This document shows positions 660 through 48,135 of a stretch of DNA of 64,000 nt, piece by piece; position 1 is the stretch's first letter, and each line of letters begins with the position of its first letter. Position numbers and translations under genes: made by a program. Source of the DNA: a virus (lineage: Duplodnaviria > Heunggongvirae > Uroviricota > Caudoviricetes); the IMG/VR virus record IMGVR_UViG_3300031760_000026; one strand, written 5' to 3'. A model generated the notes under the pieces. The model was not told where the DNA came from, did not search any database, and saw nothing but the letters and a program-made list of their open reading frames with translations.

Positions 660-1312
660 AGTCAATTAAAAAATATCCATAAACCAACTTAGAGATCACT
701 CATAATAAGTGCAATAGCATAATGGTTATTAAAAGACTAGTTTAAAAATATCCATAAACTAGCTTAGAGAGTTCTTATAAAAGGTATTATGGACGCTAAA
801 AAGTCTATTTGAAAATATCCATAAACCAACTTAAAGAGCTCCCATAATAGATACTAAAAAGCCTGTTTAAAAATATCCATAAACTAACTTAAAGAACTCT
901 TATAATAGATACTAAAAAGTATGTTTGAAAATATCCATAAACCAACATAAAGAGTTTCTATAATAGATACTAAAAAGCCCGTTTGAAAATATCCATAAAC
1001 CAACTTAAAGGGTTCCTATAATAGATACTAAAAAGCCCATTTGAAAATATCCATAAACCAACTTGGAAAGCTCCTATAATAGATACTAAAAAGCCCGTTT
1101 GAAAATATCCATAAACCAACTTGGAAAGCTCCTATAATAGATACTAAAAAGCCTATTAAAATATCCATAAATGAACTTAAAAGATTCTAGTAGATGCAAT
1201 AAATGCCAAAAAAGGCCTAATTGAAAATATCCATAAGCCAACTTAAAGGATTCTAATAACTGTAATAGATACTAAAAGGCCAGATTGAAAATATCCATTA
1301 AGTTAATTATTC
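660..1312. repeat. tandem array of ~11 direct repeats with a ~59-60 bp period (unit approx AAAATATCCATAAACCAACTTAAAGAGCTCCTATAATAGATACTAAAAAGCCCGTTTGA); candidate iterons/origin or binding-site array
   Basis: The core AAATATCCATAA recurs at ~672, 757, 817, 877, 937, 997, 1051, 1110, 1167, 1227 and 1290. The units are contiguous with no spacers, diverge only mildly, and sit immediately 3' of the 915-aa RNAP-like gene. Confidence 0.85.
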
Positions 1313-4054
1313 ACTTAATTCTCTATTAAGAGTGGAAGTGGATACTCCAATCGCATCTGCAACTTCTGCATAAGTATAACCCTTATTAAGAAGAGTTCTA
1401 GCCCTCGATTTAGCAGCTGCAGACATTCCTTTATTAGCTCTAGGAGTCGCACGCTGTTTCAAATCATCGATATTAGTATACTTAAGAATTTCTGTCAGCA
1501 GATTGTCACTAATTGCTCCGGCTTGAATCGCTTTCCATTCTCTATCAGAAATGGTAATTGCAATGTTGTTTGGATTACTAGGATTTCTGCTTCTAGTGCC
1601 AACGGCTTTTCTGGCTCTTTCGATTTCCTGGGAACGAATCTTCTTTTTATCGTCTTTGTCCAAATTTGGATTTGCATTGATTCTCGCTGAACTTTTCACA
1701 CTAGCAATCATCTGAGCCTGGCGCTCCAAAGGAGAATTCTTTTTAGCAATATTAAGCTGGCTAATCAAAGAGGCTCTTTCAGAGGCATAAGCTTCTTTTG
1801 CAGAAGCATTTTGCTTAAGCCGGCCAGTATTAAGCATTTCTTTTCTAGCGCTATTAGCAAGACTTTTCAGCTTATTAGCATGATTAGCATAAATATCTTC
1901 AATGATCGTACCGGAGGACAGATCGTATGCGTTTCCACCTTTATTATAGATTTCAGTCATCTTGTCGCTCTTAATAGTTTTTGGCTGATAACTTCCATCT
2001 TTTTGTTGCTTCATCTTTCCGGTGGTTCTAAATATCTTATTGCCCTCAAGATAAGAAGCTTTCTCTTCATCGGTCATCTTGCTAAGAGACCTTACTTCTG
2101 TGCGATCAAGGACATACTCAGGAGACTTAGCTTTGGATATCAAAGTAGAAGATCCACCATTTGCTTTTCCTTGGTATTTCTTATTAAGCTCCTTGATACC
2201 ATTATCCTTTTCAGATGCGCGCCAATCCAGATTATGCTTTTCGGCATCGATGACAACCATTGAATGACGAACTGCCCTAGCAATTTCCTGATCTGTAGCA
2301 TTCCGAATTGTCATATCGGTTATAAGATTCGAAACTTTGCCCATCTGCATTTGCTTATGGAAACCAGTATCAGGACCGGTTTTAGGCATTCCTTCATATG
2401 CAGAATATCTTTCTTTAGGGTCAAAGTCTCTTAAGCCATAAAGTGGGGAAGATGGATTAACTTTCTCGCCAGCAATAATTTTAATTCCTTTGGTGGGAAT
2501 AACAGTTACAGTATCGCCGTCAAAATCTGCTCCGGACAATTGTTTTGCAACATTAGCGTTAATTCCAACTGCGGTTTTTGCATTGCCGAGAAGTTTTCTA
2601 CCTTCTTCATTATTGTTATTAACTCGAAGTCTCGGCATTTCAAAAGGACCAGCATGAGGATATCTTATTAAGACAACTTCTTCTCCGTTCTCATAATTAG
2701 GAGCATAGATTTCGGAGTCTTTAAGAGAACCAACTGGTAAAATAACGTGTGCGGCTTGTCTTGGGAGAGCAGCGGCTTTTAAATGCACCGCATTAGAATC
2801 GCAATCATCAGCGAATGATTCCAGAAGTTTACGCTTGATCGTTGGGTTAGTTAATGAACAAATCTCATCAAACTCCTGCTTCTTCTCTTTATAAGTAATA
2901 TCCAGCTGCTTCTTGGCCAACTGTGGAGGTTGCTTTGAAAGAAACTGAGAAGAAAGATTCTTAGACCACTTTTGCCAATCTTCATCTTCATTGACAATAT
3001 TTAAAGCTCCACGTTGATCTTTGATGGATGCTCCAAATGGGTTGCTTTCATCAACTTTACCAGTCGACTTATCCTTCTTCATTTCTTTAAGAACATCCAT
3101 TTTAGGAGTTCCTTCATGTTTATTGGTATTAAAGACAATATCCACGCCTTCAGGCATATTGTCCCCATACATCGCCATGCCCTTAAGATAGTGAGTGCCA
3201 TCGACAGCGATTCTCACCTGAGCATAGCGACTTTGGCCAATATCCAGATCCGGAACACCTTCACGAATCTCAATAACGCCATCTTTTTCAGAGCCGCCTT
3301 CTTCAGAATATCTTATTTGAACTCTATCAGAACTGATGCTTTGGGGCTTCTGAAAGGTCTTAACAACCTCGCCATAATCTTCAAACTTAATTCCTTCAGG
3401 AGAAGAAATCTGATCTCGATGTTGATACACTTCGGAGTACGGAACATCGTCTTTTGTAAGAACGATAACATTGGTTTTTTGAGTCGGATCACTTGCTTGA
3501 GGCACAGAGATTCGATGATAAGAATATCCATCCTGCTTAAGAAGCTCGACGGCCGCTTTCATCTGCTCTTTGGAAACATTAAGCTGAAGTTCAACACCTT
3601 CGCCAACATCCAAATATTTTCTTTCTTCAACTTGTTTTTTAAGCTCATCAGCAAGAAGTGTAGCTTTATCTCTACGAGCTTGGAAAGTAGGATCTAAATA
3701 ATGACGAACTGTAGATTCTGGAATTCCCAATTCTCTAGCAATCGCCATCTTGGAATTTCCAGCATCATATAAAGTCTGGACTCTGCGAATAGTATCTTTC
3801 TTCTGTTCATTCACAGCAATAGTGTGCATCGCTCGATACTGGCCAGTACTCATTCCAAAAGCTTCCGCAACTTGCTTATCTGTCAAACCTTGCTTCTTAA
3901 GATCGTTTGCTCTCTGAAGAAAGTTCTTATTTCGTTGAGGGTTTTTACCAGAGCCCCAAGGATATCTACCGGAATGCCTAGGGGTTCCATAATGTTCAGC
4001 ATCTTCTTCAACGTCTGGTAAATATCCATGATAGTTACTAAGCATCTTACTCAT
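1307..4054 (-). CDS. Large HTH-containing protein with an RNA-polymerase beta-prime-like double-psi beta-barrel catalytic motif (YonO/crAss-like non-canonical single-subunit RNAP or RNAP-like primase)
   Basis: The segment RYPHAGPFEMPRL...TAVGINANVAKQLSGADFDGDTVTVIP aligns with the beta-prime active-site region (R.P..H...NADFDGDQMAVH.P), with the DFDGD codons at about nt 2506-2532. There are sigma region-4-like HTHs near the N-terminus (LTDKQVAEAFGMSTGQY; MAIARELGIPESTVRHYL) and at the C-terminus (YTYAEVADAIGVSTSTLNREL). An AGGAG-type RBS lies upstream. Confidence 0.55.
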   Translation of the reverse strand: MSKMLSNYHGYLPDVEEDAEHYGTPRHSGRYPWGSGKNPQRNKNFLQRANDLKKQGLTDKQVAEAFGMSTGQYRAMHTIAVNEQKKDTIRRVQTLYDAGNSKMAIARELGIPESTVRHYLDPTFQARRDKATLLADELKKQVEERKYLDVGEGVELQLNVSKEQMKAAVELLKQDGYSYHRISVPQASDPTQKTNVIVLTKDDVPYSEVYQHRDQISSPEGIKFEDYGEVVKTFQKPQSISSDRVQIRYSEEGGSEKDGVIEIREGVPDLDIGQSRYAQVRIAVDGTHYLKGMAMYGDNMPEGVDIVFNTNKHEGTPKMDVLKEMKKDKSTGKVDESNPFGASIKDQRGALNIVNEDEDWQKWSKNLSSQFLSKQPPQLAKKQLDITYKEKKQEFDEICSLTNPTIKRKLLESFADDCDSNAVHLKAAALPRQAAHVILPVGSLKDSEIYAPNYENGEEVVLIRYPHAGPFEMPRLRVNNNNEEGRKLLGNAKTAVGINANVAKQLSGADFDGDTVTVIPTKGIKIIAGEKVNPSSPLYGLRDFDPKERYSAYEGMPKTGPDTGFHKQMQMGKVSNLITDMTIRNATDQEIARAVRHSMVVIDAEKHNLDWRASEKDNGIKELNKKYQGKANGGSSTLISKAKSPEYVLDRTEVRSLSKMTDEEKASYLEGNKIFRTTGKMKQQKDGSYQPKTIKSDKMTEIYNKGGNAYDLSSGTIIEDIYANHANKLKSLANSARKEMLNTGRLKQNASAKEAYASERASLISQLNIAKKNSPLERQAQMIASVKSSARINANPNLDKDDKKKIRSQEIERARKAVGTRSRNPSNPNNIAITISDREWKAIQAGAISDNLLTEILKYTNIDDLKQRATPRANKGMSAAAKSRARTLLNKGYTYAEVADAIGVSTSTLNRELSE

Positions 4055-4608
4055 TCTCCTTCATCCTGAATTTGAGACAATCTCTTATCAAAGAAAATAA
4101 TTTTATCCATAATCGTAAGAATGTCTTCCGGCTCAGGATTCAACACGGAAATTTCATCCGACTGGTAAATGCGGAGTTCCATTTCAATCTGATTTGGATC
4201 AACACTATACTCTAAACAAAAAAGAGCAGCATAAATCATAAGCTGCTCCATATGTGCCGGAGTTATTCCAGATTTCAGATCGTGTATCCGCAAAAAGTTG
4301 TTTCTAAAAGAAATAGAATCTGCAGTCCCAAAGCAATTATTTGAATAATATAAAGGCTGTTCGGGGGTCATCTTGAAACCAATTGCGTCATTAACATACA
4401 TATTCAATGTCTTTTTTGACTTCGGCAATTTGATTCCAAGCTCAATCGCTTTTCTAGCAAAATCATGAAGCTCGGTCCCTCTTTGGATAGCCAAATTACT
4501 CTGGTATGCAGATATCAATTTCTCTTCATCATAGTTTAGCCAATGATACTTAGATGCGCTTAGAAATGCATGTTTTCCTTCTAGGTTGAAGTGCTTGTTG
4601 AAGTTCAT
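4051..4608 (-). CDS. PD-(D/E)xK family nuclease (Cas4/RecB/YqaJ-like)
   Basis: Motifs GTELHDF ... GTADSISF ... LRIHDLKSG match the D...(D/E)xK signature. The start overlaps the upstream VRR-NUC ORF. Confidence 0.5.
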   Translation of the reverse strand: MNFNKHFNLEGKHAFLSASKYHWLNYDEEKLISAYQSNLAIQRGTELHDFARKAIELGIKLPKSKKTLNMYVNDAIGFKMTPEQPLYYSNNCFGTADSISFRNNFLRIHDLKSGITPAHMEQLMIYAALFCLEYSVDPNQIEMELRIYQSDEISVLNPEPEDILTIMDKIIFFDKRLSQIQDEGE

Positions 4609-4944: not shown

Positions 4945-6177
4945 TTAAGAATATACAAAACCACTTTCGTTGAAGTTTTTCTTCTGTTTAAGAGCTCTCG
5001 AGATAGCCAAGTCCAAAGGGCAACTGGATTTTAGCCGATAGTAATATAAATCTTTGTATGGAGTGTTCATCCGATCTATTCTTCCGGCCGACTGAACCAT
5101 AATTTTGTAAGAATAGTTCAATGAATAAAAAATTATCGTGTCGGTCTGTATGCAATTCCAGCCTTCTGCTCCGGCAGTATACTGCACCAAATATACCCAC
5201 TTTTCACCATTTGGAATGTACTCATGTTTATGCCCATTCCATTCGGCGACCTGAACACCGGGGCCATAATCAATAGATTTTAAAATATCCAATTCGTAAT
5301 CATAATTATAGAAGATTATTGTCCTAGGATGATTCTTCCTCAGTTCTAATATGGCTTCTACTCTACTTGGATCACTATTAATTACTCTCCTTGCTGTATA
5401 ACATAGTTCTGCAGCATTTACGATTGGGGAATCTGAAAATATATTCCATCTCTTTCCCATTACAAACTTATATGTTTCTTTGTCATAATCGACGGTAATT
5501 GTTTCATGATGTGTGACTGTTGGACGAGTATAGTCCATATTGATAAGGATCTTATTTCTTAGTTTAATCAATCGACCTTGGTCCAAATATCTATCAACTT
5601 GTGGAAACTTGGCAAACCTCTTGTATACAACATGCCTGGTTATGAACTCGCTTTTATTCTTGTAAAAACCATTTGCTACAAACACCGGCATGTAATCCAT
5701 CCATGTATCACCTGGAGTTGCGCTTAATAATATCCATCTATTCCTTTTGGCTATTTGCCAGAAAGATTTGGTCCACGCTCCAGATCCGACGACCCTTTGT
5801 TCATCAAATATAAAGAATGAGTCTTTCACATTAATGTACTTCTTAATGTTGTTCCAAGAATCAATCACCAATGACATCTGACCAAAATATAAAGAATCTT
5901 CATTATTTGAAATTAGAAATGGGGAGCATTCTTTTTCCCACTCTTTGGTATCTCTTTTTCTAGCAGTGGTAATAATATAAAGGTCTTTCGGGTTCTTCAT
6001 TGGATAATAGTCATCTTTTAAGCCCTTTGAAAACCCATCAAGTATGCCATTACACTCTTTTGTGAAAAAATATGCCAATGACGTTCTTGATTTGCCAGAC
6101 CCAACTCCTCCGCAAAGAATAGATCCATTACCCAATCGATCAACAGCATCCCATTGGTAATCATATAAAAAACTCAT
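4945..6177 (-). CDS. SF2 DEAD/DExH-box helicase
   Basis: Walker A is GGVGSGKS, motif II is FIFDEQRV (DExx) and motif III is LLSATPG. Helicase C-terminal-like region follows. Confidence 0.8.
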   Translation of the reverse strand: MSFLYDYQWDAVDRLGNGSILCGGVGSGKSRTSLAYFFTKECNGILDGFSKGLKDDYYPMKNPKDLYIITTARKRDTKEWEKECSPFLISNNEDSLYFGQMSLVIDSWNNIKKYINVKDSFFIFDEQRVVGSGAWTKSFWQIAKRNRWILLSATPGDTWMDYMPVFVANGFYKNKSEFITRHVVYKRFAKFPQVDRYLDQGRLIKLRNKILINMDYTRPTVTHHETITVDYDKETYKFVMGKRWNIFSDSPIVNAAELCYTARRVINSDPSRVEAILELRKNHPRTIIFYNYDYELDILKSIDYGPGVQVAEWNGHKHEYIPNGEKWVYLVQYTAGAEGWNCIQTDTIIFYSLNYSYKIMVQSAGRIDRMNTPYKDLYYYRLKSSCPLDLAISRALKQKKNFNESGFVYS

Positions 6178-6243: not shown

Positions 6244-6732
6244 TTAGAATGGAGTGTCCTCATCCAGGCCATCTTCTTCAAGATTCCTGTATTTCTTCTC
6301 GAATTCATTCTCGACAATCGTAACATACATGTTCTTGACATACGCCTTAATTCCGCCCTTTCCATTTACTTCCCAAGTATAAGGACGAACAATAATATCC
6401 ACATTCTCAATCTCAGCGTAATCCAGAACCGCGACTGTGTCCTCATTCAGCTCGGTTTTCTTTCCTCCAGAAACAAGCCAAATCTTAGGCGGGAAATTAT
6501 CAAAAGCTACGGCAACCTGAAGGTATGCCTGCGGCTCATCATCCGGATCTCGAGGATTAAGATACTTCACATTCCAGCCAATATCCTTAAGATCCTCAGC
6601 GACATCGTTATCAAGAACAAGGCAGAAATTGCGCTTGCCCTTTGCATTAAACTTGCTTTCCTTACCTGCAAAATTTCTGAAAATGATTCTTGCATTCTCC
6701 ACAGAAATATTAGAAACTCTCTGATTAGCCAT
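6244..6732 (-). CDS. ssb: single-stranded DNA-binding protein-like (acidic C-terminal tip LDEDTPF)
   Basis: The C-terminus EEDGLDEDTPF resembles the conserved SSB tail (DDDIPF). It lies in the replication module and has a strong RBS. Confidence 0.45.
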   Translation of the reverse strand: MANQRVSNISVENARIIFRNFAGKESKFNAKGKRNFCLVLDNDVAEDLKDIGWNVKYLNPRDPDDEPQAYLQVAVAFDNFPPKIWLVSGGKKTELNEDTVAVLDYAEIENVDIIVRPYTWEVNGKGGIKAYVKNMYVTIVENEFEKKYRNLEEDGLDEDTPF

Positions 6733-6766
6733 AATTAATAGCTCCTTTCAAAAATATAAATAATTA
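6733..6766 (-). promoter_or_regulatory. example of the recurrent upstream motif TTATATTTTTGAAAGGAG-N(7-10)-ATG (promoter-like element fused to the RBS)
   Basis: On the minus strand: TTATTTATATTTTTGAAAGGAGCTATTAATT ATG. The same motif precedes ~20 genes in the window (see findings). Confidence 0.5.
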
Positions 6767-9700
6767 AGAGGCAAATGCCTCGAAATCTCCATACTGAGAA
6801 ATCGAAGTAATTGCCTCATCTACCATTGCCGCATAATATCTTCGGTCGATGTCATCTTCTTTATGCAGAGTCTTTACCATTTCGGACTCCATCCAACGAT
6901 ATCCCTTCGTCCCCGTGGCTGCGCTATACTTACCATTCTTTTCTCTCAAAAGAATTCCGCCGCCACATCCTGGTTTAATTGGGCAGAAAGAACCGGCTTT
7001 ACCAACAAATTGGTAGTTATGACCAGAACAAATCCGAGAATATAAATCTACAGCTTCTTTTAATGCTGACTGATACTCTTCGTTCTGGTATGAAATATCC
7101 ATGTCTCCAGCAGCAAATGCTTTCGCAGTATTCTGAATGCCAATTAGATCAAATCCATGTTCCTTACAGATTTTATCAAGATGCTTCTCATACTCGCTAA
7201 CATCTGGAAGATTCTCATTCATGTCCAAATATAAGGCCGAGGTTACAGTTTTAGTTTCGCACATGTCTCGGAATCCGATTGCAGATTTACTAAACAATGT
7301 TTTGAATACATATGGAACCTGAAACTGTGTGCCTGTTGCAGTCCAAGCGGTTTTTACACTTTCGCCAGTAGGAAGCTCAAAGTCATGCTCGCCATCATCA
7401 TACTTAGCAATATAAACTGCATCATTAACTAAGCACATCTTGGCATATGTGGCCTCATGCTCAAAAGTATATCCATACTGCTTTCCATAATTCATAACAA
7501 ACTCAATGATCTCTGGAGTCGCATCAGGAATCTTGATTGAGTCTGTTTTAATATGCGCCACAGTATAGCCACGATCCTGAACCTCATGCTTCAAATTAAT
7601 CATGAATAAGGCTCCACGTTTAGCCACGATATTATCAATGTTGCGAGGATCTTTGAATGGATTCTCAAATGTTGCCGATGTCAAACCATATACACTATTA
7701 ATCGCAATCTTTAATGCATATGACAAAGCCTTTGCCTGCTTTCCATCAGTTAAATATTTAGAAAGTTTTCCACCAAACAGATTTCCTGCTGCCTCAAAGT
7801 CTTTATGCTTAATATAAATTCGAGCTTGCTTAATGTCACTGAAGTTCTTTGTATACGGACCAAACAGATTTAGGCACTCAATACTCGTCGGGTGCATAGA
7901 AGCGATGTCTAGCAGTGCCACATTGGAGTACATGCCAGGCTCAGAATATACATAGCCACCTTCACCAGTTTCCTCACCTCTATAAGTACTCTTTCCATGA
8001 TCATACTTATACCCAGGAAACATTTCTGAAAGATCAGTATACACAAACTGAGATTGGGGCTTCTTTTCTGATCCAAATATAATTCTAGTAGTATGCATGT
8101 TTGTCGTGGCATTCACATTCAAACCGGAAATATCCGCCAGAATCTCTCTTGCCACAAAATCCTCGTGACGTGCATTAAATACTGCTTCAGTAGCAATGAC
8201 ATCATTATCGCAATACTCAGCCACCTTCTCCCAAAGTTCTTCTGGAACAGGCTGATCCCACGGAAGACCGAGTTCCTGATGATGAATATCAAGTTCGATT
8301 TCCCACTTTTTCAAGCTCTGTTTCTTAGCACAGAAGTCATATACATCTGTGTAAGAAATATCATACGCTTCTCCAAAGAAGGCATTAGAACTTCCGCCAA
8401 TAATCCTTTGAGACAGCTCATAAATCTGAGATTCGGAATATCCAAGCATTCTGGCATAAAGAATGTGGTTATCGTAGCGTCGACAGTTAAAACCAACAAG
8501 TTTAAATCTAATCAGATCCTCAATCTCATTTGGAGACGGATTGATCATTCTATTTACCGGATTTCCTTCTCCTTCTTTCTTCCAGTTAACAAGAAGAAGA
8601 TTAGGGAAAACCTCGACATCATAGAATATCAAGAAGTCTTCCAAAGATTCCATTGCTTCTGATGGTTCATCTGACTTAAAGTGCATTTGATCAACCATCT
8701 TTAAACAATCAGATGCATGGTGACTACTCTTAGCCGCAAAAGTCATAATATAAGGTCTAAGATTTGTCACATCATAATGCATTCCACTTTCGTACGCGTC
8801 GTTTAAAACCTTCTTAATAAACTCACAGCTAGTAACTGTCGCATGTGGAGCATACTCTTTTGCCAGACTTCTCCGAATGATTGTTCTTAGGGCTTTCTCA
8901 TTTTTAATAGATTCAAAATTTACCACTTTGTCCTCCTTTCGAAGTGGTAAGCCAGAACTGATAGTTGCAAATATCAATGGCGCACACTTGGTAAGCTTAC
9001 GTCTCAATGAAGACTTACCACTAAACACCTTAACTTCGATTCCATCCTCATAGATTCTACTAAGCTTACTTACATCGCCATTGTAAATATAATGCAGATG
9101 GATTCCTTGCCCGCTCTTGCTAAGCTCAGCGTAAGTTTTAGGCCATTTAGAAGCTGCCTCGATGTTCCTTTCAAGAGACTTGTTGCCTTCGCGATCCTTT
9201 AAATCGAAATCGATTACGATATGATTCTCAGGCACTCTAACATAGTGGAGCTTGCTAGTGTCAAGATCTGATAGTCTTGTTGTAACTTCATCCCACTTTT
9301 TCCAAGGCCCCTCAGTGTCTGGGTTAGCATATTGAGCTAAAGCTGTAGCCATCTCCAAATCAAACGGAGACTTAGTCTCAACAAACTGAAGCCAAGTTCG
9401 ATCTTCAGAATTGCCTAGCTCTTCAGCCCCTGAAATATCTTGCTCATTAGATTGCTCCTCCTCGATGCCAAACTTACTAAGCTTTAAGCCGCTATAATAG
9501 TTTCTAACTTGATTGTCATCCTTATCTCTAGCTCTATCATCAAAATGTTCAAAATAGTTTTTAAGCTCTTCTTTAAATAGCCTCTTGCTATATGGATAAG
9601 GAACTTTAGCTTCTTCACAGTATTCCTTGTATCTAGTCCATGCTTGCTGAAGAGTAACTCCATCCGCCTGCCTAAAATCAAAGAAATTTTCCTCCATATA

Positions 9701-10759
9701 GTTAAAGAAGTCGTTAGTAGCTCCAAGCATTGACTTAGGAATATAATTTTCATATGCTTCTTTATCTTCTTCATATACTTTAAGGCAATGATATGCAATT
9801 GCCCCAAGTTCGAAGTCGATCTTTTTCATAAGTTGATTATATCTCTTATAAGGAATCTTCTTTTCAGTAGGGGAAACATCGATAAGCCTTCGAATAATAC
9901 CTGATTTACTATCTGTAATCCTGACTGGACTATTTGTTCCCATAAACAGCATTGCATGGAATCTCGTAGAATATAATTTAGAATACTTCTCATTCACGGT
10001 CATTTCTTCATGGGAAACCAAACTATTTAAACGAGTATTATCTTCAATTCTACTCAAATTACCATCATGCTGAATTCCAACTAATGGATTATTCTTGAAT
10101 GGTTCGAGAGCAAAAGCGTCCGTGCTACTTCCAAGTGCTTTGGCATCAAACGAAGCACAATATCCATTAAATAACTTTTGGATAATATTCAAGATAGTTG
10201 ACTTGCCAGTACCGGCGCTTCCATAAAAAACTAGAAACTTTTGAATTAACTTGCTATCACCATTCACAACAGATCCAATAGCCCATTCGATCTTATGTCG
10301 CTCTGGTGCAGAATATAAAGTTCCAACTAATTCATCCCAAGCTTCGATACTTCCTTCTTCCAATGCATAAGGCAATCTCATACTCGCATAGTCTTCTCTA
10401 TTTACCGGACTATTTGCAAATATCAATTTCTCATCAAGATTATGAAAGTTATCTCTCATTTGCTTCTGGCAATACTTGTGCCACTTGTCAATCATCCCAG
10501 TATCGCCATTCCACAAATATAAAACTTTTGCATCTGCCAAAGCAGGATTATTTTTCTTGTATTGATCTAACTCATGGTCGATTAAGTCTACTACATCATC
10601 CTGAGATTTAGACCATAAACCTTTATTCTCATCCCATATAGCATAAAAATCGCCGCCACGAATCATTAAATCTTTTGATGCCTTTGTGATAAATACTGGA
10701 TAGATTTCTGCAGGACCAGTCTTTTTCTGCTGTCGCCAAGTAACTTTTAGAAAATCCAC
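6764..10759 (-). CDS. Replicase fusion: SF3 (P4/D5-type) helicase, archaeo-eukaryotic primase (AEP), 3'-5' exonuclease and family B DNA polymerase
   Basis: SF3 motifs are Walker A FYGSAGTGKST and motif C FMGTNSP (aa ~180-280). AEP motifs are HIVIDFDLKD (DxD) and SGQGIHLHYIY (sxH) at aa ~520-560. Exo I is FYDVEVFPN and Exo II is YCDNDVIA. PolB motif A is DIASMHPTS, motif B is KIAINSVYG and motif C is HIKTDSIKI. Confidence 0.85.
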   Translation of the reverse strand: MDFLKVTWRQQKKTGPAEIYPVFITKASKDLMIRGGDFYAIWDENKGLWSKSQDDVVDLIDHELDQYKKNNPALADAKVLYLWNGDTGMIDKWHKYCQKQMRDNFHNLDEKLIFANSPVNREDYASMRLPYALEEGSIEAWDELVGTLYSAPERHKIEWAIGSVVNGDSKLIQKFLVFYGSAGTGKSTILNIIQKLFNGYCASFDAKALGSSTDAFALEPFKNNPLVGIQHDGNLSRIEDNTRLNSLVSHEEMTVNEKYSKLYSTRFHAMLFMGTNSPVRITDSKSGIIRRLIDVSPTEKKIPYKRYNQLMKKIDFELGAIAYHCLKVYEEDKEAYENYIPKSMLGATNDFFNYMEENFFDFRQADGVTLQQAWTRYKEYCEEAKVPYPYSKRLFKEELKNYFEHFDDRARDKDDNQVRNYYSGLKLSKFGIEEEQSNEQDISGAEELGNSEDRTWLQFVETKSPFDLEMATALAQYANPDTEGPWKKWDEVTTRLSDLDTSKLHYVRVPENHIVIDFDLKDREGNKSLERNIEAASKWPKTYAELSKSGQGIHLHYIYNGDVSKLSRIYEDGIEVKVFSGKSSLRRKLTKCAPLIFATISSGLPLRKEDKVVNFESIKNEKALRTIIRRSLAKEYAPHATVTSCEFIKKVLNDAYESGMHYDVTNLRPYIMTFAAKSSHHASDCLKMVDQMHFKSDEPSEAMESLEDFLIFYDVEVFPNLLLVNWKKEGEGNPVNRMINPSPNEIEDLIRFKLVGFNCRRYDNHILYARMLGYSESQIYELSQRIIGGSSNAFFGEAYDISYTDVYDFCAKKQSLKKWEIELDIHHQELGLPWDQPVPEELWEKVAEYCDNDVIATEAVFNARHEDFVAREILADISGLNVNATTNMHTTRIIFGSEKKPQSQFVYTDLSEMFPGYKYDHGKSTYRGEETGEGGYVYSEPGMYSNVALLDIASMHPTSIECLNLFGPYTKNFSDIKQARIYIKHKDFEAAGNLFGGKLSKYLTDGKQAKALSYALKIAINSVYGLTSATFENPFKDPRNIDNIVAKRGALFMINLKHEVQDRGYTVAHIKTDSIKIPDATPEIIEFVMNYGKQYGYTFEHEATYAKMCLVNDAVYIAKYDDGEHDFELPTGESVKTAWTATGTQFQVPYVFKTLFSKSAIGFRDMCETKTVTSALYLDMNENLPDVSEYEKHLDKICKEHGFDLIGIQNTAKAFAAGDMDISYQNEEYQSALKEAVDLYSRICSGHNYQFVGKAGSFCPIKPGCGGGILLREKNGKYSAATGTKGYRWMESEMVKTLHKEDDIDRRYYAAMVDEAITSISQYGDFEAFAS

Positions 10760-10789
10760 ATGTTATCCTCCTTTCCGGTCATCACGGAC

Positions 10790-11045
10790 CAAAAATCACT
10801 CATGTGACACTTTTTACACTTTTTCGCTTCTACTTTATATATAAATATTAATTTTTCCTCACGCAATGATAATAAAAAAGTGTCACAAGTGTCACAAAAC
10901 ACCCAAAAACTTTAATTTTACCCCATTTTTACCCTAAAATACCCCATTTTGAGGTCAAAATTGACCATTTTTGAGATATTTTTGTGACACTTTTTTCTGT
11001 CACAAAGTGCTCAAAAGTGTCATAAGTGTCACAAAACCTAATTTT
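10790..11045. promoter_or_regulatory. intergenic cluster of at least 7 copies of the palindrome GTGTCACA/TGTGACAC upstream of the replicase gene; candidate operator array and promoter
   Basis: Copies at ~10803, 10877, 10887, 10983, 10998, 11018 and 11027 (for example AAAAGTGTCACAAGTGTCACAAAAC) in an ORF-free 300-bp region. Confidence 0.6.
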
Positions 11046-11055
11046 TCTCAATTTT

Positions 11056-12397: not shown

Positions 12398-13324
12398 TTA
12401 AATCATATCCCAAATCGGTCCATCTACATTGAAGTTTAGATGAATGTTCTGCTTGCACAAGTCACTATCTGTCCGATAATCACGAATGAAACCGTCCAAA
12501 TAACCGAAGTCAATGTAATCATCTCCAGCTCCCTTGATCCAACCACAAACCTGGCCAGCAGGAGTACGCTTCAGACCAAGATGATCCAAGACCTCATTAA
12601 GAAAGACATGGCCTCTTGCCTGGAGCAGATCATTAAAGTAATTCTGACTATTTCTAAGAAACATTTCGCTATAATCCGGATTAGCATTCCAAGTCAGAGG
12701 GGCAGTATGGCGATTAAAATCGAATTCATAAGGAGATTTACTGCCATTTCCGAACACCATATTATGGCCGTTCTTTGTAACAATTTCCCCATTTTCATCC
12801 TCAATTTGAATATCTTTTTCAACTTTTCCGTCAGCCATGAGAACTTTTTCCGCATCTTCGCCAATAAGCTCCTTAACACGCCCTCTATAGCCCGTAAAAG
12901 CCTCGTTAAGCGCTCCTAGGGCTGCCGTCGTATTGAGATACCTGTTATTTAAAATGCCGTGAGAAAGCAAAATAAGGGCAATAGAGGCCACTTCCAAACC
13001 GACCACAGGAGCCAGTGCACGAGCAACTCTCCATACCATTTTGTTATAGGCACGCCAAGTCATCTGCTTGACTTCCTTAACTTCTTCCTTCGTAGGATTC
13101 TCTTTTTTGTCCAGTTCATTACGCTTGGTCTGAATATCATCCAGATCCTTATGGGCATCGTCAATGGCCTCACGAATCTTCTTAGCTCTCATGACGCCAA
13201 CAACGACAGCGCCAATACCACAAGCAACACCACCAGCAAGAGCCAACTCAGGACTAATCTTGCGGAGTTTCATATATCCCTTAAACATTACAGTTTTCAC
13301 TGTGCCAAAATTAATAGCGTTCAT
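12398..13324 (-). CDS. hypothetical membrane protein
   Basis: Two predicted TM helices (GGVACGIGAVVVGV; LAPVVGLEVASIALILL) plus a soluble domain. Confidence 0.4.
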   Translation of the reverse strand: MNAINFGTVKTVMFKGYMKLRKISPELALAGGVACGIGAVVVGVMRAKKIREAIDDAHKDLDDIQTKRNELDKKENPTKEEVKEVKQMTWRAYNKMVWRVARALAPVVGLEVASIALILLSHGILNNRYLNTTAALGALNEAFTGYRGRVKELIGEDAEKVLMADGKVEKDIQIEDENGEIVTKNGHNMVFGNGSKSPYEFDFNRHTAPLTWNANPDYSEMFLRNSQNYFNDLLQARGHVFLNEVLDHLGLKRTPAGQVCGWIKGAGDDYIDFGYLDGFIRDYRTDSDLCKQNIHLNFNVDGPIWDMI

Positions 13325-14110: not shown

Positions 14111-14929
14111 TTAGCACCTAAATGGCATTTCGTCTTTTGGCAATTCATTAGGATGAATCTCATAATCCATCTCAAAATATGTATTGCCATCAGGTTTTTC
14201 CACTTTTATGGGAACGAATGTGATCCAAGCTGCTCTGGAGGGACTATAGTCAATCGCCTCCAGGAACATCTCGTCATCCATGCTCCAACCAATAATTTCT
14301 CCTAGTTTCGTTTTCTTGCACCCATCGTATAAAGCTAAAATATCATTTAGTTTAACTTTGTAAGTCTGCTGCAGCATCTTATTGGCGGTCAGTTCGGCCC
14401 ACAGGATTTCTTGCTGAGACGCTCGAAACCACTGCTTTGTATATGGCTCATAGATAGTCATCTTAGTAGATTCCTTAGGCTCCCAAGGAGGACGCTCATC
14501 TTCCAATTTCTTTTCGGCAATATCTTTTTTGAGGTCCTCAAGAGCGTCTTCGCCATACTTTTCCTTGATAGCCTCTTTAAGTTCGCCTTCGGATGCTTTG
14601 TAAAATGCTACAGCCGCTGCCATGGCACCCTCTTTACTTAGATGCCAGTAGTTTACACCGACAACACAGGCAATAGTGCCGACTCCAACAACTGTCGGTA
14701 TAATATAATTCTTAAAATGCTTTTTAGTTACTTTTTTCTTAATTTCCTTAATTGGCGTTTCACTATTCTCTGGACGTTTGACTTCCGAGGCAATTTCCAT
14801 TGTGACTTTTTCAGTTGCCTTATGCGTCAAATATCCAGTAAGTACCACACCTACTGCTGCTATACCAGTGAGGATAGATGGCCCATGCTTTTCAAGAACA
14901 TTGCCAATCAATTTTAAATTAATTTTCAT
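14111..14929 (-). CDS. hypothetical membrane protein
   Basis: Two TM helices near the N-terminus, then a charged soluble domain. Confidence 0.4.
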   Translation of the reverse strand: MKINLKLIGNVLEKHGPSILTGIAAVGVVLTGYLTHKATEKVTMEIASEVKRPENSETPIKEIKKKVTKKHFKNYIIPTVVGVGTIACVVGVNYWHLSKEGAMAAAVAFYKASEGELKEAIKEKYGEDALEDLKKDIAEKKLEDERPPWEPKESTKMTIYEPYTKQWFRASQQEILWAELTANKMLQQTYKVKLNDILALYDGCKKTKLGEIIGWSMDDEMFLEAIDYSPSRAAWITFVPIKVEKPDGNTYFEMDYEIHPNELPKDEMPFRC

Positions 14930-15153: not shown

Positions 15154-15428
15154 TTAAGTTCCTCCGGCGCCTTAAGCTCTTCCAAAAATATCATTACTTG
15201 CTTTTCGACTTGCCGCTTGATTATAAAGTCGCTAAGTGCCCCGCTTTCATAGTAAGGCCTAAGCGTGAATACCCGATGAAAGTCAGTAGGCTTGTAATCG
15301 AGTCTAACGTCGTATTCAATATAGGATAAGTCATGTGGATCTATTCGGCAGGAGAAGTCATTTGGGTCAAAACCGGCTTTCAAAGCCAGCTCACTCAAAA
15401 TTGCAAATATAATAGCCGAGATGCTCAT
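15150..15428 (-). CDS. hypothetical protein
   Basis: 92-aa ORF. Its start/stop overlaps the neighbours by 4 nt (operon-like coupling). Confidence 0.35.
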   Translation of the reverse strand: MSISAIIFAILSELALKAGFDPNDFSCRIDPHDLSYIEYDVRLDYKPTDFHRVFTLRPYYESGALSDFIIKRQVEKQVMIFLEELKAPEELK

Positions 15429-16279
15429 TCTTTTTCTTCTAACTCTTTCTTAGGAATATACTTTTTGAATTTGTTCTCATCACCAACGCCAAAGTCCTCG
15501 AAGCTCATACCATACTCTTTCATGCGCTCCAGAATAGCGTCAGCCAATTCCCGCTCGTACTTATGATCAACATAGTTAAAGAATCGAATAGCAGACTTCA
15601 CATGATCAGCATCCGGCAGAGGGAACTTTTTCTGCTCAGGCACACCAAATTTCTTGTCGTCTTCTTTTTCTTCCTTATCGGCATGCTCCACGACTTCGTC
15701 AGTATTTTTAGGTTCCTCGTCTTCTTCAATAAGAATCTTCTTCATTTCTTCAAGAATATAATTCACCGTCCGTCTAGTCCTCTTATGGAAACGAATCCAA
15801 TCCTTATGCTCATCCCACCACTTAAAAATAGTAGTCAGATCATCGGCCCTCCAGCTGAAAGACCACCAGTCACAGATCATCTCGAAAATATAACTGAGCG
15901 GCATCTCAATAATCTTCTCGCCATCACCCTTGCTATCATCCGTAAGAACCCAATACTGCCAATGATGCGGATTCCGATGCATATGGATAAGGAAGGCTTT
16001 ATTGAATTTGTCTACAACAAAGGAAGAACGATTGTCTTTTTTCAGATAAAAGTAGTCGTCATAAGGGAAATACTCTTCTGGGTCAGTCTTAGATGCATCA
16101 TGATACTGTACAAGTTCCCGAATCTCAAAAATATCAATCGGATCAAACTCTTCCTGATACTGCTCACGAATCCAGCTATCAAAACTCTCTCTATTTAGAA
16201 GATTTTCCTCCATCCATGCCCAGCCTTTCTGGACAGCTCCAATATGTTCTTTCAGGTATTCATCATACGCTAAACTCAT
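15425..16279 (-). CDS. hypothetical protein with a His-rich cluster (HMHRNPHHWQYW)
   Basis: 284 aa with a QYHDASKTDP ... HMHRNPHHW motif that may bind metal. Lys/Glu-rich C-terminus. Confidence 0.35.
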   Translation of the reverse strand: MSLAYDEYLKEHIGAVQKGWAWMEENLLNRESFDSWIREQYQEEFDPIDIFEIRELVQYHDASKTDPEEYFPYDDYFYLKKDNRSSFVVDKFNKAFLIHMHRNPHHWQYWVLTDDSKGDGEKIIEMPLSYIFEMICDWWSFSWRADDLTTIFKWWDEHKDWIRFHKRTRRTVNYILEEMKKILIEEDEEPKNTDEVVEHADKEEKEDDKKFGVPEQKKFPLPDADHVKSAIRFFNYVDHKYERELADAILERMKEYGMSFEDFGVGDENKFKKYIPKKELEEKE

Positions 16280-20430: not shown

Positions 20431-21864
20431 TTACCAGCAATACTCCTCGATCCTCTTCTCCAGGTTTCCTTCTCCCTGCTCAGCAAGAAGGATGAAGTCA
20501 AAGATCTTCTCAGACCAGCCGGCAATAATGTTGGTATGCTTGCCATGGAACTGCTGAGTGCCATAACCATGCAAATCAATGGCGTGGACCCAAATATCAT
20601 TGTCAGTCATCCGGCGATACTGATCAGCATAGGACTGAATTGTGGACTTTCCGCACCATCCGCCATTGCACTCATTATCTGAGAGAATGATGATGCGGTC
20701 GGCTTTGATCTTGCCATCGATCATAGCCTGAAACGGAAGCCTCATGTCAGTGCCGCCAGAAGGATGAGCATAGCGGATAGTGTTCTCAATGAGTCCACCA
20801 CGTCTGGAGATATCCATTCTCTTAATGGAATGATTGAACGTATACACGATGGAGTCATCGCAGATACGGTTGGCAATCAGACCAAGAAGAACGGAAATAT
20901 CGCAGCACTTAACATCGGACTTAGAGCTGATGCATGAGCTCATCGAGCCAGAAGTATCCATGGCAATGATAGTTCTACCTGGAATCTTCGGAAGATTCTC
21001 AACAGAAATATCAATGGCGTCCTCAAGAGTGTCGAAGACCTTGCTGCTGGCGATTCCATTAAGGCTTCTATAAGCATTGAGGAAACGGAAGGGGAGCTGC
21101 TTGGATTTCCGAACTGCCTCAGGATTCCGAATATAATTAAGCGCCTCATCCAGATTGTCCGGACCGGCATTAATAGTATTTCTCAGATTCCGAAGCATAG
21201 CCATGTAGCCAACTTTATGGCTGGCGATGAGTTCCTCCCAGACTTCCTTTGTATTGCCTTTAGTGGACAGCTCAGTTTCCCAGGTGTAAGGAGTCTCGAG
21301 AGTTCCTTCAAGGCAGTGCTTCCAAAGAGCTTCCTGCTCCTTATTTACTGGCTTAGGTCTGCAGAGGCAAAGCAGGTCTCTCATCTTTACTTCCTTACCA
21401 GAGCCCTTGTATTTGGCAAGAGAGTACTCGTCGAGAGTCTGCATGACTTCGCCAATGCCCTTCTTCAGAGAGTTCGGAATAGGCTTGCCAAACTCCGAAA
21501 TATAAAAAGCCATAATCTCAGTCAGGTCATCGCCTCTGAGACATACGCCTTTTACAGTGGAGCGGACAAAGGGCTTACCCTCAACCTCATGTGCCAAATA
21601 TCCCGTAAGGACATGAGACACAGAGCGCATGTTGAACTCTCGTCTTGCAAAGACTGCAAGATTGGAGACAAACTGCGGGTCCTCCTTAATGACCTTAGGA
21701 ATGAGCTCCTTCATTTCCTTGGAGTTGTCTCCATAGAACTTCTTCTCGTTGAAGAAGCTCGTGAGGACCTGAGTAACAAGCTTGGACTTATTACTCATCT
21801 TGTACGCTACATGGCCCTCGTGGTTAGTGGTCTTAATGCTCGGGGAAGAATTGAATTTTGCCAT
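20431..21864 (-). CDS. rsr: Ro60-like protein (TROVE domain + vWA/MIDAS), bacterial Rsr homolog
   Basis: The N-terminus is NHEGHVAYKMSNKSKLVTQVL...FYGD (TROVE-type start). A C-terminal vWA domain carries the MIDAS motif IIAMDTSGSMSS. The start is refined to ATG at 21864 (MAKFNSS) with a GGAGG RBS; the track's 55-aa N-terminal extension runs through an ncRNA. Confidence 0.75.
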   Translation of the reverse strand: MAKFNSSPSIKTTNHEGHVAYKMSNKSKLVTQVLTSFFNEKKFYGDNSKEMKELIPKVIKEDPQFVSNLAVFARREFNMRSVSHVLTGYLAHEVEGKPFVRSTVKGVCLRGDDLTEIMAFYISEFGKPIPNSLKKGIGEVMQTLDEYSLAKYKGSGKEVKMRDLLCLCRPKPVNKEQEALWKHCLEGTLETPYTWETELSTKGNTKEVWEELIASHKVGYMAMLRNLRNTINAGPDNLDEALNYIRNPEAVRKSKQLPFRFLNAYRSLNGIASSKVFDTLEDAIDISVENLPKIPGRTIIAMDTSGSMSSCISSKSDVKCCDISVLLGLIANRICDDSIVYTFNHSIKRMDISRRGGLIENTIRYAHPSGGTDMRLPFQAMIDGKIKADRIIILSDNECNGGWCGKSTIQSYADQYRRMTDNDIWVHAIDLHGYGTQQFHGKHTNIIAGWSEKIFDFILLAEQGEGNLEKRIEEYCW

Positions 21865-21914
21865 TTTCAAGCACCTCCGAAAATATAAATGTTTTAGTGA
21901 ATGCAGAGAAAATT

Positions 21915-22016
21915 GGTTACGGACTATAAAGCTCTTTGATCTACCAACTGATCTACTACTCACGTTGAGTAGATTGGATTTGAACCAATGACACAAAAGG
22001 TGAAGTAACCGTAACC
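21915..22016 (-). ncRNA. Y-RNA-like (YrlA-like) ncRNA A: tRNA-like module with permuted order (T-arm, loop-closed acceptor stem, D-arm) enclosed by a terminal stem
   Basis: The minus-strand RNA reads GGTTACGG...ATTGG-TTCAAAT-CCAAT, then CTACTCA-ACG-TGAGTAG, then TA-GATC-AGTTGGTA-GATC...CCGTAACC. The ends pair over 8 bp (GGTTACGG/CCGTAACC). It lies immediately upstream of rsr. Confidence 0.55.
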
Positions 22017-22235
22017 TACACTGCTGCATAAATATAATTGCCTAGCGTTTCAAGCCCTTTTTAGCGGTGTCTCTGTTTCCGCAATCACGCATTGTCCAAT
22101 AGGGCTATGGGCTATAGGACTCACTCTATGTCGCCGACAGCATTTCAGCTTCCGCACGCATAGAGGATGGTCGATATTTTTATTCCGCATCATCCACTCT
22201 GCGGTAAATATGAATTGCGAGAGCGGAGAAAAGAA

Positions 22236-47046: not shown

Positions 47047-48135
47047 TTGTTGAAAATACCGGAACCAAAGCAGCTCCCATCCGGTAGTTGGCGAATCCAG
47101 ATTCAGGTTAACGGCCAAAAATATAGTATCACAGACAAAGACAAGAAAATTGTCAAACAAAGGGCGAAAGAGATCTATGCCGGCAAAAATGTAGATAAGC
47201 ATATCCCTATGACAGTAGAGAAGGCAATGGAGGAGTACATAAAACTCAAAACACCAGTTCTCTCACCGTCCACGATTCTAGGCTACACCAGATACAAGGA
47301 TAACTACCTGAGGCATATTGCAAATATAAATCTTTCGAAGCTCACTCAAGAAGATGTTCAAGCTGCAGTAAACAAAGATGTATTAGCAGGAAAGTCCCCG
47401 AAGACAATTCGGAATGCTCATGGTCTACTGAGCGCTGTGCTAGGCCAATTCAGACCAAATTTTCAACTCAGCACGACCCTCCCTCAAAAGCGTCCGTACC
47501 AGGTTCATATACCAGAAGAGGAAGAGATCAAAAAGATTTGGGAACTGTCAAAAGGTACAGTCTACGAGCTGCCGATTCTCCTAGGTGCTTGCTGCGGGAT
47601 GCGTATGTCTGAAATTCGAGGCCTTAAATTCTCAGATCTGGACGGTGACAGAATCCATGTACAGAGAGCATTAGTCAGGGGTACTAGCTCGGATGGAAAG
47701 AAGACAAAGTCAGTTGAGAAGCTCACAAAGAGTTATTCTGGAGATCGCTGGATAAAATTACCAGATTTTGTCGTGAAACTCATAGAGAAGCAGCCAAGGA
47801 AATCCGAGTACATTTGCCCATATTCTGAGAATGCTATCTACAAAAACTATGTGAAATTCTGTGAGGAGGCCGGGGTTCTTCCAACTAGGTTCCATGACCT
47901 GAGGCATTTCGAGGCATCCGAAGCTCACTCAATTGGCGTGCCTGATGAATACCAAATCAAGAGACTCGGGCATAAGACGGATAACATGCTCAAGTCCACA
48001 TACAGACACACATTGCGGAGTAAAGAGCTTCCATTTGAGGAGCAGATCAATACCCGAATGAGCGAGATTTTTTCAGAATCTTCACACGAAAGTTCACACG
48101 AAAAAGAAAAAGCCGTGAAAACATCACGAAAATAG
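47047..48135 (+). CDS. int: tyrosine recombinase / phage integrase
   Basis: It is the only large plus-strand gene. Catalytic motifs are ACCGMRMSEIRGLKFSDL (R box), HDLRHF (HxxR) and STYRHT (Tyr). It has a TTG start with AGGAGGG 7 nt upstream. Confidence 0.85.
   Translation: MLKIPEPKQLPSGSWRIQIQVNGQKYSITDKDKKIVKQRAKEIYAGKNVDKHIPMTVEKAMEEYIKLKTPVLSPSTILGYTRYKDNYLRHIANINLSKLTQEDVQAAVNKDVLAGKSPKTIRNAHGLLSAVLGQFRPNFQLSTTLPQKRPYQVHIPEEEEIKKIWELSKGTVYELPILLGACCGMRMSEIRGLKFSDLDGDRIHVQRALVRGTSSDGKKTKSVEKLTKSYSGDRWIKLPDFVVKLIEKQPRKSEYICPYSENAIYKNYVKFCEEAGVLPTRFHDLRHFEASEAHSIGVPDEYQIKRLGHKTDNMLKSTYRHTLRSKELPFEEQINTRMSEIFSESSHESSHEKEKAVKTSRK

Follow-up and report, generated by a model that had tools for sequence, protein, structure and literature searches.

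GP55 of Lactococcus phage 1706 was described by Kazlauskas et al. in 2016 as a fusion of an SF3 helicase, an archaeo-eukaryotic primase (AEP) and a DNA polymerase of family B (PolB) (PMC4889955). Only two helicase-primase-polymerase fusions appeared in that survey, and the primase was N-terminal in 94% of fusions, which makes a helicase-first order atypical. The only other single-chain case was Pas55 of Actinoplanes phage phiAsp2, in which an SF3 helicase is joined to a DnaG primase and PolA (PMC4889955). The group to which GP55 belongs was later named 'HelPrimPolB' and placed in the EpsilonN-like clade; its motif C and KxY were noted to show 'profound' differences (Kazlauskas et al. 2020, NAR 48:10142; PMC7544198). 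Here, we analyze a 1331-residue protein encoded at positions 6764 to 10759 of a 64,000-nucleotide stretch of viral DNA (IMG/VR record IMGVR_UViG_3300031760_000026; the whole stretch is called the window below). This protein is very probably an orthologue of GP55, with a PolB of the HelPrimPolB group, and serves as replicative enzyme in a temperate tailed phage of the supercluster that joins Faecalibacterium and Lactococcus phages to actinophages.

The biochemistry of GP55 has been established with the purified protein, which is a polymerase, 3'-5' exonuclease, helicase and RNA primase in one (Zhang, Lu, Zhu and Huang 2025, NAR 53:gkaf542; PMC12205980). Its helicase depends on UTP or dTTP and is accompanied by strand displacement. 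The RNA primase has a strong site, 5'-CCAAC-3', starts with GTP, depends on D509, and needs a new four-helix alpha-helical domain (aHD). Polymerization by GP55 is proficient at an enzyme concentration of 1.25 nM; the protein also replicates ssM13 de novo and behaves as a dimer in size-exclusion chromatography with multi-angle light scattering. The K189A substitution abolishes helicase activity, D949A abolishes polymerase activity, and D712A and E714A abolish exonuclease activity. More than 1000 homologues were reported, mainly in human-associated phages (PMC12205980).

A single reading frame with the domain order of GP55

On the minus strand, 6764..10759 is a single uninterrupted open reading frame (ORF) of 1331 amino acids (aa) plus stop, with a GTG start at 10759 (10757-10759). 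The GTG is supported by the Shine-Dalgarno sequence AAAGGAGG, set off by a 7-nt spacer, and by the N-terminal MDFL that the protein shares in alignment with homologues starting at ATG. The same AAAGGAGG-spacer-GTG layout is found in two relatives, L008 and L009. Over residues 1-1330 the protein matches phrog_4210 (E=0), and a BLASTP comparison with GP55 (NC_010576 orf55) gave a collinear match of 39% identity over 1339 columns (residues 19-1325 versus 22-1298, E=0). The chain holds, in this order, an SF3 helicase, an AEP primase together with its small helical domain, an exonuclease (3'-5') and a PolB, as follows.

6764..10759, minus strand: replicase ORF, very probably a GP55-type 'four-in-one' replicase (HelPrimPolB), from phrog_4210 and the GP55 BLASTP match
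10767..10774, minus strand: Shine-Dalgarno sequence AAAGGAGG, read directly from the sequence
10265..10759, minus strand: residues 1-165, putative N-terminal beta-rich and helical 'collar' (D5_N-like), from the length of the AlphaFold2 (AF2)/Foldseek alignments
9860..10264, minus strand: residues 166-300, SF3 (P4/D5-type) AAA+ NTPase core, from DUF5906, PHROGs, the P4 alpha match and motifs
9467..9859, minus strand: residues 301-431, helical and winged-helix C-terminal helicase domain (Pox_D5-like), from Pox_D5, AF2 and structural alignments
9395..9466, minus strand: residues 432-455, acidic, low-complexity, indel-rich linker EEEQSNEQDISGAEELGNSED, from the alignment and model confidence
8924..9394, minus strand: residues 456-612, PriS-like AEP primase catalytic domain (D517/D519, H554, E575)
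8675..8923, minus strand: residues 613-695, four-helix aHD with conserved Y662 and F674
8060..8647, minus strand: residues 705-900, 3'-5' proofreading exonuclease subdomain, from phrog_1252 and invariant motifs
6767..8059, minus strand: residues 901-1331, PolB palm, fingers and thumb, from PDB matches and invariant motifs

The original prediction, made without database searches, had read these four functions from a single polypeptide. Its coordinates and length were right, to which we add the minus strand, and each of its domain calls withstood testing.

Conservation was examined in an alignment of 15 sequences, 41-89% identical to the window protein. They belong to phages of Faecalibacterium, Lactococcus, Gordonia, Rhodococcus, Arthrobacter and Streptomyces and to one oral caudovirus, and seven are proteins from metagenomes. 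All 15 are collinear and every catalytic residue is invariant: K186, D232, N276 and R290/R291 in the helicase; D517/D519, H554 and E575 in the primase; D714/E716, D763 and Y849/D853 in the exonuclease; and D951, K1017/N1021/Y1024 and D1073 in the polymerase. All the motif sets named from the sequence alone are present and unvarying in this alignment. Not only the domains but also the AEP-aHD-exonuclease junctions are conserved, and the only poorly conserved stretches are the acidic linker at 432-455 and inserts in the thumb region.

GP55 shares the order SF3 helicase, PriS-like AEP, aHD, exonuclease and PolB, and likewise lies in a phage replication module. We mapped its residues through the CHPC971 orthologue, which is numbered as GP55: K189 corresponds to K186 of the window protein, D509 to D519, D712/E714 to D714/E716, D949 to D951, and Y655/F667 to Y662/F674. 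Every functionally tested residue of GP55 is therefore conserved at 39% identity, and K186, D519, D714, E716 and D951 are invariant in 15/15 sequences. The GP55 deletion constructs 1-439, 1-688 and 689-1317 have their junctions at window residues ~436 and 695/696, in agreement with the domain boundaries drawn here. Compared with GP55, the acidic linker of the window protein is longer and its variable thumb inserts, at ~1120-1135 and 1185-1245, are different; the host of its phage also differs, being probably a gut Firmicute. By homology to GP55, the protein should function as a self-contained mini-replisome; its activities, its preference among nucleotides, the site of priming, a dimeric state and cooperation in trans between primase and polymerase would be those of GP55, from which we infer them.

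Distribution of the fusion

By tblastn against deposited phages, the protein was found in 364 genomes, and at least 80% of it was covered in 252, whose hosts come from two phyla. The proteins are annotated as 'DNA primase/polymerase', 'helicase/polymerase' or 'DNA polymerase', and the ReqiPepy6 record already notes a fusion of COG3378 and COG0417. In the same search, the nearest annotated relative was that of Faecalibacterium phage FP_oengus (56% identity). The search of a 5.8-billion-protein collection returned 8000 scored candidates, all at E<=1e-10, of which the best 120 clusters are all full length with at least 62% identity. Deposited phage genomes with the fusion number at least 252, and the metagenomic protein clusters that have it run into thousands. 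Independent assemblies of ENA and of JGI data contain an identical 1331-aa protein. No near-identical DNA to window positions 5-25 kb was found among deposited phages, so the phage itself is absent from the deposited-phage collection searched.

The claim that a complete helicase-primase-exonuclease-PolB chain is unusual thus stands for the type of architecture, which accounted for two cases in 2016 (PMC4889955), but not for the family, which is published and abundant (at least 252 genomes). The architecture, the reversed order and the divergent motif C were published in 2016 and 2020, and the biochemistry of GP55 followed in 2025; the window protein is a divergent member of this family. Its discovery value is accordingly small. 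What it adds is a divergent orthologue, 39% identical to GP55 and 56% to that of the closest deposited phage. It comes from a temperate phage that is uncultivated and probably associated with the gut, and it draws attention to two invariant active-site substitutions, His956 and Lys1071, and to an upstream iteron-like cluster.

The helicase module and the linker

The SF3 core carries Walker A (GSAGTGKST, with K186), Walker B (D232), sensor-1 (N276) and the arginine finger (R290/R291). Pfam DUF5906, the P4/D5-type SF3 P-loop family, matches residues 178-291 (E 4.3e-13), several PHROG families of primase/helicase cover residues 117-438 (1e-23 to 1e-27), and P4 alpha was matched by the replicase in the tblastn search of deposited phages. 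C-terminal to the core, Pfam Pox_D5 is sub-threshold at residues 350-412 (E 0.005), and in the AF2 model residues 301-431 form helices and then, at 403-425, a beta hairpin. The model of residues 1-450 has a predicted local distance difference test score (pLDDT) of 75. In Foldseek it matches, at E ~1e-9, the SaPI5 primase-helicase (its best structural match), vaccinia D5 323-785, mpox E5, African swine fever virus (ASFV) PrimPol and the C-terminal region (305-718) of the NrS-1 protein. Because these alignments span 400-460 columns, the collar domains of the targets included, the whole module of collar, AAA+ core and C-terminal domain appears to be present. Residues 1-165 are accordingly assigned as a predicted collar from the length of the structural alignment; a profile search of these residues against PDB sequences gave chance-level matches only (E>0.1).

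Between the helicase and the primase, alignment columns ~440-500 are variable and gapped, and pLDDT falls below 50 at residues 435-450. The original prediction had described residues ~300-500 as low in complexity. This is true of residues ~432-455, but residues 300-430 are a helical and winged-helix domain that is conserved and modelled with high confidence (pLDDT 80-97), so the range given was too wide.

The SF3 AAA+ motifs, the collar and the C-terminal DNA-binding domain of D5/P4-type primase-helicases are all found in the window protein, but its primase does not lie N-terminal to its helicase (helicase 1-431, AEP 456-612). The original prediction had pointed to this reversal of the canonical order, which was correct and already in print (PMC4889955). 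Poxvirus D5, mpox E5, ASFV PrimPol, P4 alpha and SaPI5 share the SF3 motifs; in these proteins, however, the primase (AEP or DnaG-type) precedes the helicase and there is no polymerase. NrSPol of phage NrS-1 (PDB 6A9W, N300; 6K9C/6LRB, C-terminal region) also has the canonical AEP-then-helicase order; here one AEP site both primes and synthesizes DNA, a helix-bundle domain stands in place of the aHD, and PolB and exonuclease are lacking. Pas55, with its bacterial DnaG-type primase and family A polymerase, is analogous rather than homologous to the window protein. In contrast, comparison with the HelPrimPolB group revealed no difference: the N-terminal SF3 helicase and PrimPol fusion, the divergent motif C and the prevalence in metagenomes are all three seen for the window protein, which we place in the group by these shared features.

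The primase and the helical domain

The AEP motifs are motif I (D517xD519), motif II (SKSGxGxH554) and the acidic E575 at the motif III position. Structure comparison of the predicted model confirmed an AEP catalytic fold, while the last four helices (residues 621-690) matched only generic helical repeats. Together, the predicted fold, the motif conservation and the GP55 D509A result support the assignment as an AEP. The window protein has neither the helix-bundle domain (HBD) nor the PriL-type accessory module of AEP PrimPols.

When the AEP and aHD together were used to query 1.84 billion cluster representatives, 435 matches were obtained. Nearly all of the best 150 are proteins of 1240-1520 aa with the match at ~residues 440-720. 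Among these listed matches the AEP subtype occurs almost only at ~residues 450-700 of 1250-1430-aa proteins. This AEP subtype is therefore found essentially only as part of the fusion.

The exonuclease and the polymerase

The phrog_1252 family ('DNA polymerase') matches residues 694-904 (E 1.8e-43), and the exonuclease motifs ExoI (D714/E716), ExoII (N758/Y762/D763) and ExoIII (Y849/D853) are invariant in the alignment. For the polymerase, E. coli Pol II was matched in the PDB at 2.5e-4 with the single sequence and at 2.1e-8 with the family profile; the profile also matches archaeal PolBs at ~1e-5 and Pol alpha at ~1e-4. The PolB motifs are A, LDIASMHPTS (D951, H956); B, KIAINSVYG (K1017xxxN1021SxYG, Y1024); and C, HIKTDS (K1071, D1073). 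In the thumb region, the window PolB has a variable insert at ~residues 1185-1245.

At the canonical positions, motif B and the metal ligands D951 and D1073 are present, but the steric-gate Tyr is replaced by His956 and the first Asp of DTD by Lys1071. Motif A thus reads SMHPT rather than the SLYPS of PolBs, and motif C reads HIKTDS rather than YGDTDS. The latter difference had been flagged from the sequence and turns out to be a feature of the whole family. His956 is invariant, K1071 is present in 15/15 aligned sequences, and HIKTDS is unchanged except for one I-to-V substitution. GP55 has the same His and Lys (LLDVESLHPHS in motif A, VHVKTDS in motif C). We therefore reject the idea that the two variants are peculiar to the window. 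Because active GP55 carries them, they are compatible with proficient DNA synthesis, and on the same grounds the window PolB is counted, by analogy, as divergent but bona fide. The published descriptions say little about these residues: the text of the GP55 paper does not mention the motif A His or the motif C Lys (PMC12205980), and of motif C Kazlauskas et al. (2020) say only that it differs (PMC7544198).

It is conceivable, but on balance unlikely, that His956 and Lys1071 constitute a functionally distinct PolB chemistry. Such a chemistry could be an altered discrimination between ribo- and deoxyribonucleotides or an altered usage of metals, tuned to the short RNA primers from the AEP in cis.

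Enterococcus phage phiSHEF2 (MF678788; L011, 1018-3306) encodes a PolB-like protein of 763 aa that stands alone and carries the annotation 'hypothetical protein'. A distant relative of the exonuclease/polymerase half of the replicase, it keeps the Tyr of motif A (GSLYPNT) but has SNTDA as motif C. The first Asp of DTD has therefore been lost outside the fused family as well.

Genomic neighborhood

Four genes lie downstream of the replicase on the same strand, and an integrase gene lies elsewhere in the window.

6244..6732, minus strand: single-stranded DNA-binding protein, directly downstream of the replicase (PF24083 Phage_ssDNA_bind, 5e-60)
4945-6177, minus strand: SF2 helicase
4051-4608, minus strand: Cas4/RecB-like exonuclease
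1307-4054, minus strand: 915-aa protein resembling RNA-dependent RNA polymerase (RdRP), with helix-turn-helix domains at both ends (phrog_4291 'RNA-dependent RNA polymerase', full length, E=0)
47047-48135, plus strand: tyrosine-type integrase (phrog_1, 1e-48)

In relatives L008, L009 and L012, too, the gene for the single-stranded DNA-binding protein is found at this place. This neighborhood agrees with the replication module of a phage supercluster comprising Streptomyces BI, Arthrobacter, Gordonia, Rhodococcus, Lactococcus 1706-like and Faecalibacterium FP_oengus phages (bioRxiv 10.1101/842583), and metagenomic relatives and FP_oengus are syntenic with the window. The 915-aa RdRP-like protein is a YonO/crAss-like single-subunit putative RNA polymerase, conserved in L008 and L009; such a polymerase has been proposed as a signature gene of the supercluster (bioRxiv 10.1101/842583).

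The integrase gene is the only plus-strand ORF of at least 150 aa identified as a gene, and it suggests that the window phage is temperate (or a prophage). From ~46 kb on, GC content rises to 0.42-0.45 and GC skew nears zero, and a module or element boundary may lie near this point.

Upstream of the replicase are two DUF6353/phrog_2152 paralogues of 308 and 272 aa, at 12398-13324 and 14111-14929 (both minus strand), one copy of which is found at the same position in L008 and L009. A 284-aa protein with DUF5662 (7e-32) and DUF6582 (3e-6) is encoded at 15425-16279 (minus strand), in the early/replication region, and a 532-aa protein matching phrog_850 'RNA-binding protein' (5e-51) at 20431-22029 (minus strand).

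Alternative explanations

Among the alternatives, the one that survives best, though very improbable, is that one or more of the modules are inactive relics (a dead PolB, or an AEP kept as a structural spacer), leaving an enzyme that is only a helicase or only a polymerase. Such a reading could draw on the unusual motifs A and C and on an AEP that is barely detectable by sequence. Inactivated PolB modules do exist elsewhere, for example Pol epsilon C and archaeal PolB2 (see PMC7544198). However, the His and Lys that replace the canonical residues are fixed in all 15 sequences and shared with GP55, which at 1.25 nM is a proficient polymerase and makes RNA primers in a D509-dependent manner (PMC12205980). 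Moreover, D951/D1073, motif B, ExoI-III and AEP D517/D519/H554 are all invariant.

Slightly less probable again is that a satellite, a plasmid or an integrative element of the SaPI/P4 kind, residing within a phage region, owns the gene, which would then not be the replicase of the phage itself. The SaPI5 primase-helicase is, as noted above, the best structural match of the helicase module, P4 alpha is matched as well, and the window contains an integrase gene at 47047-48135. Nevertheless, the replicase is part of the conserved replication module of the supercluster, with the same neighbors in FP_oengus, phage 1706 and the metagenomic relatives, and FP_oengus, a complete phage genome, encodes an integrase too. 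It also counts against a satellite that no second DNA polymerase gene was found among the 20 larger window ORFs in a non-exhaustive scan against PHROGs.

Finally, the rarity of the architecture (two cases in 2016; PMC4889955) and the low-complexity linker at 432-455 might raise the suspicion that an error of assembly or sequencing, or an accident of recent date, joined separate primase-helicase and PolB genes, but this has next to no probability given the collinear, frame-intact protein in at least 252 independently sequenced phage genomes, the full length of all of the best 120 of 8000 metagenomic clusters, the conserved AEP-aHD-exonuclease junctions, and the purification of full-length, active GP55 (PMC12205980). 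Invariance of the catalytic motifs across phages of two bacterial phyla excludes a frameshift artefact, which the original prediction had held to be unlikely, and the identical protein in separate ENA and JGI assemblies makes a stop or frameshift within 6764-10759 very unlikely. On this evidence, we rejected the inactive-domain, satellite-element and frameshift-artefact readings.

Some observations do weigh against a GP55-type replicase with all four activities. Pfam Prim-Pol is sub-threshold on the AEP region (E 0.018-0.16), and a profile search of the AEP and aHD against PDB sequences returned chance-level matches (lactococcin immunity protein, L20; E>0.1); since the N-terminus behaved in the same way, fold comparison was needed for both. 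GP55 is dimeric, whereas an SF3 helicase normally acts as a hexamer, and this leaves the working assembly in doubt even for the characterized enzyme. The four activities of the window protein are, in addition, attributed to it by analogy with GP55 at 39% identity, and at this distance it may differ in quantitative properties, such as the nucleoside triphosphates (NTPs) it prefers, the site at which it recognizes the need for a primer and its oligomeric state.

Proposed mechanism

If the window protein works as GP55 does, its N-terminal D5/P4-type SF3 module (collar, AAA+ core and winged helix) would unwind duplex DNA by hydrolysis of NTPs, which in GP55 are UTP or dTTP. On the template thus exposed, the PriS-like AEP and the four-helix aHD would make short RNA primers; GP55 primes at loosely defined sites such as 5'-CCAAC-3', with GTP first. 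The C-terminal PolB would then extend the RNA primers with 3'-5' proofreading, and the helicase would confer strand displacement. The adjacent single-stranded DNA-binding protein is a likely partner in this replisome.

Upstream repeat cluster

Upstream of the replicase is a 296-bp intergenic region (10760-11055) that contains a set of repeats.

10798..11037, no strand assigned: iteron-like repeat cluster

The 64-kb window has five exact TGTGACAC/GTGTCACA octamers, against 0.9 expected (none of 100 shuffles reached 5), and all of them fall within this cluster. Together with 1-mismatch variants, the octamers form 9-bp-spaced pairs in both orientations that flank an AT-rich core. The cluster also holds the repeat families D1, D2 and I1-I10, and a 21-nt tandem at 10919-10960. 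From its sequence, it is a candidate operator, regulated promoter or origin. A more specific proposal, that the cluster is an origin bound by the winged helix of the helicase module, is a tentative one that we consider improbable. The exact TGTGACAC octamer was sought upstream of the replicase in relatives and was not found there. Instead, the layout persists in relatives (L008 and L009; protein identity 78% and 70%) with half-sites of different sequence, such as TTGTGATGTTTGTGATAG ... TTATCACAACATCACA. The relatives also keep a conserved AAAAATTAATATTTATATATA-like core.

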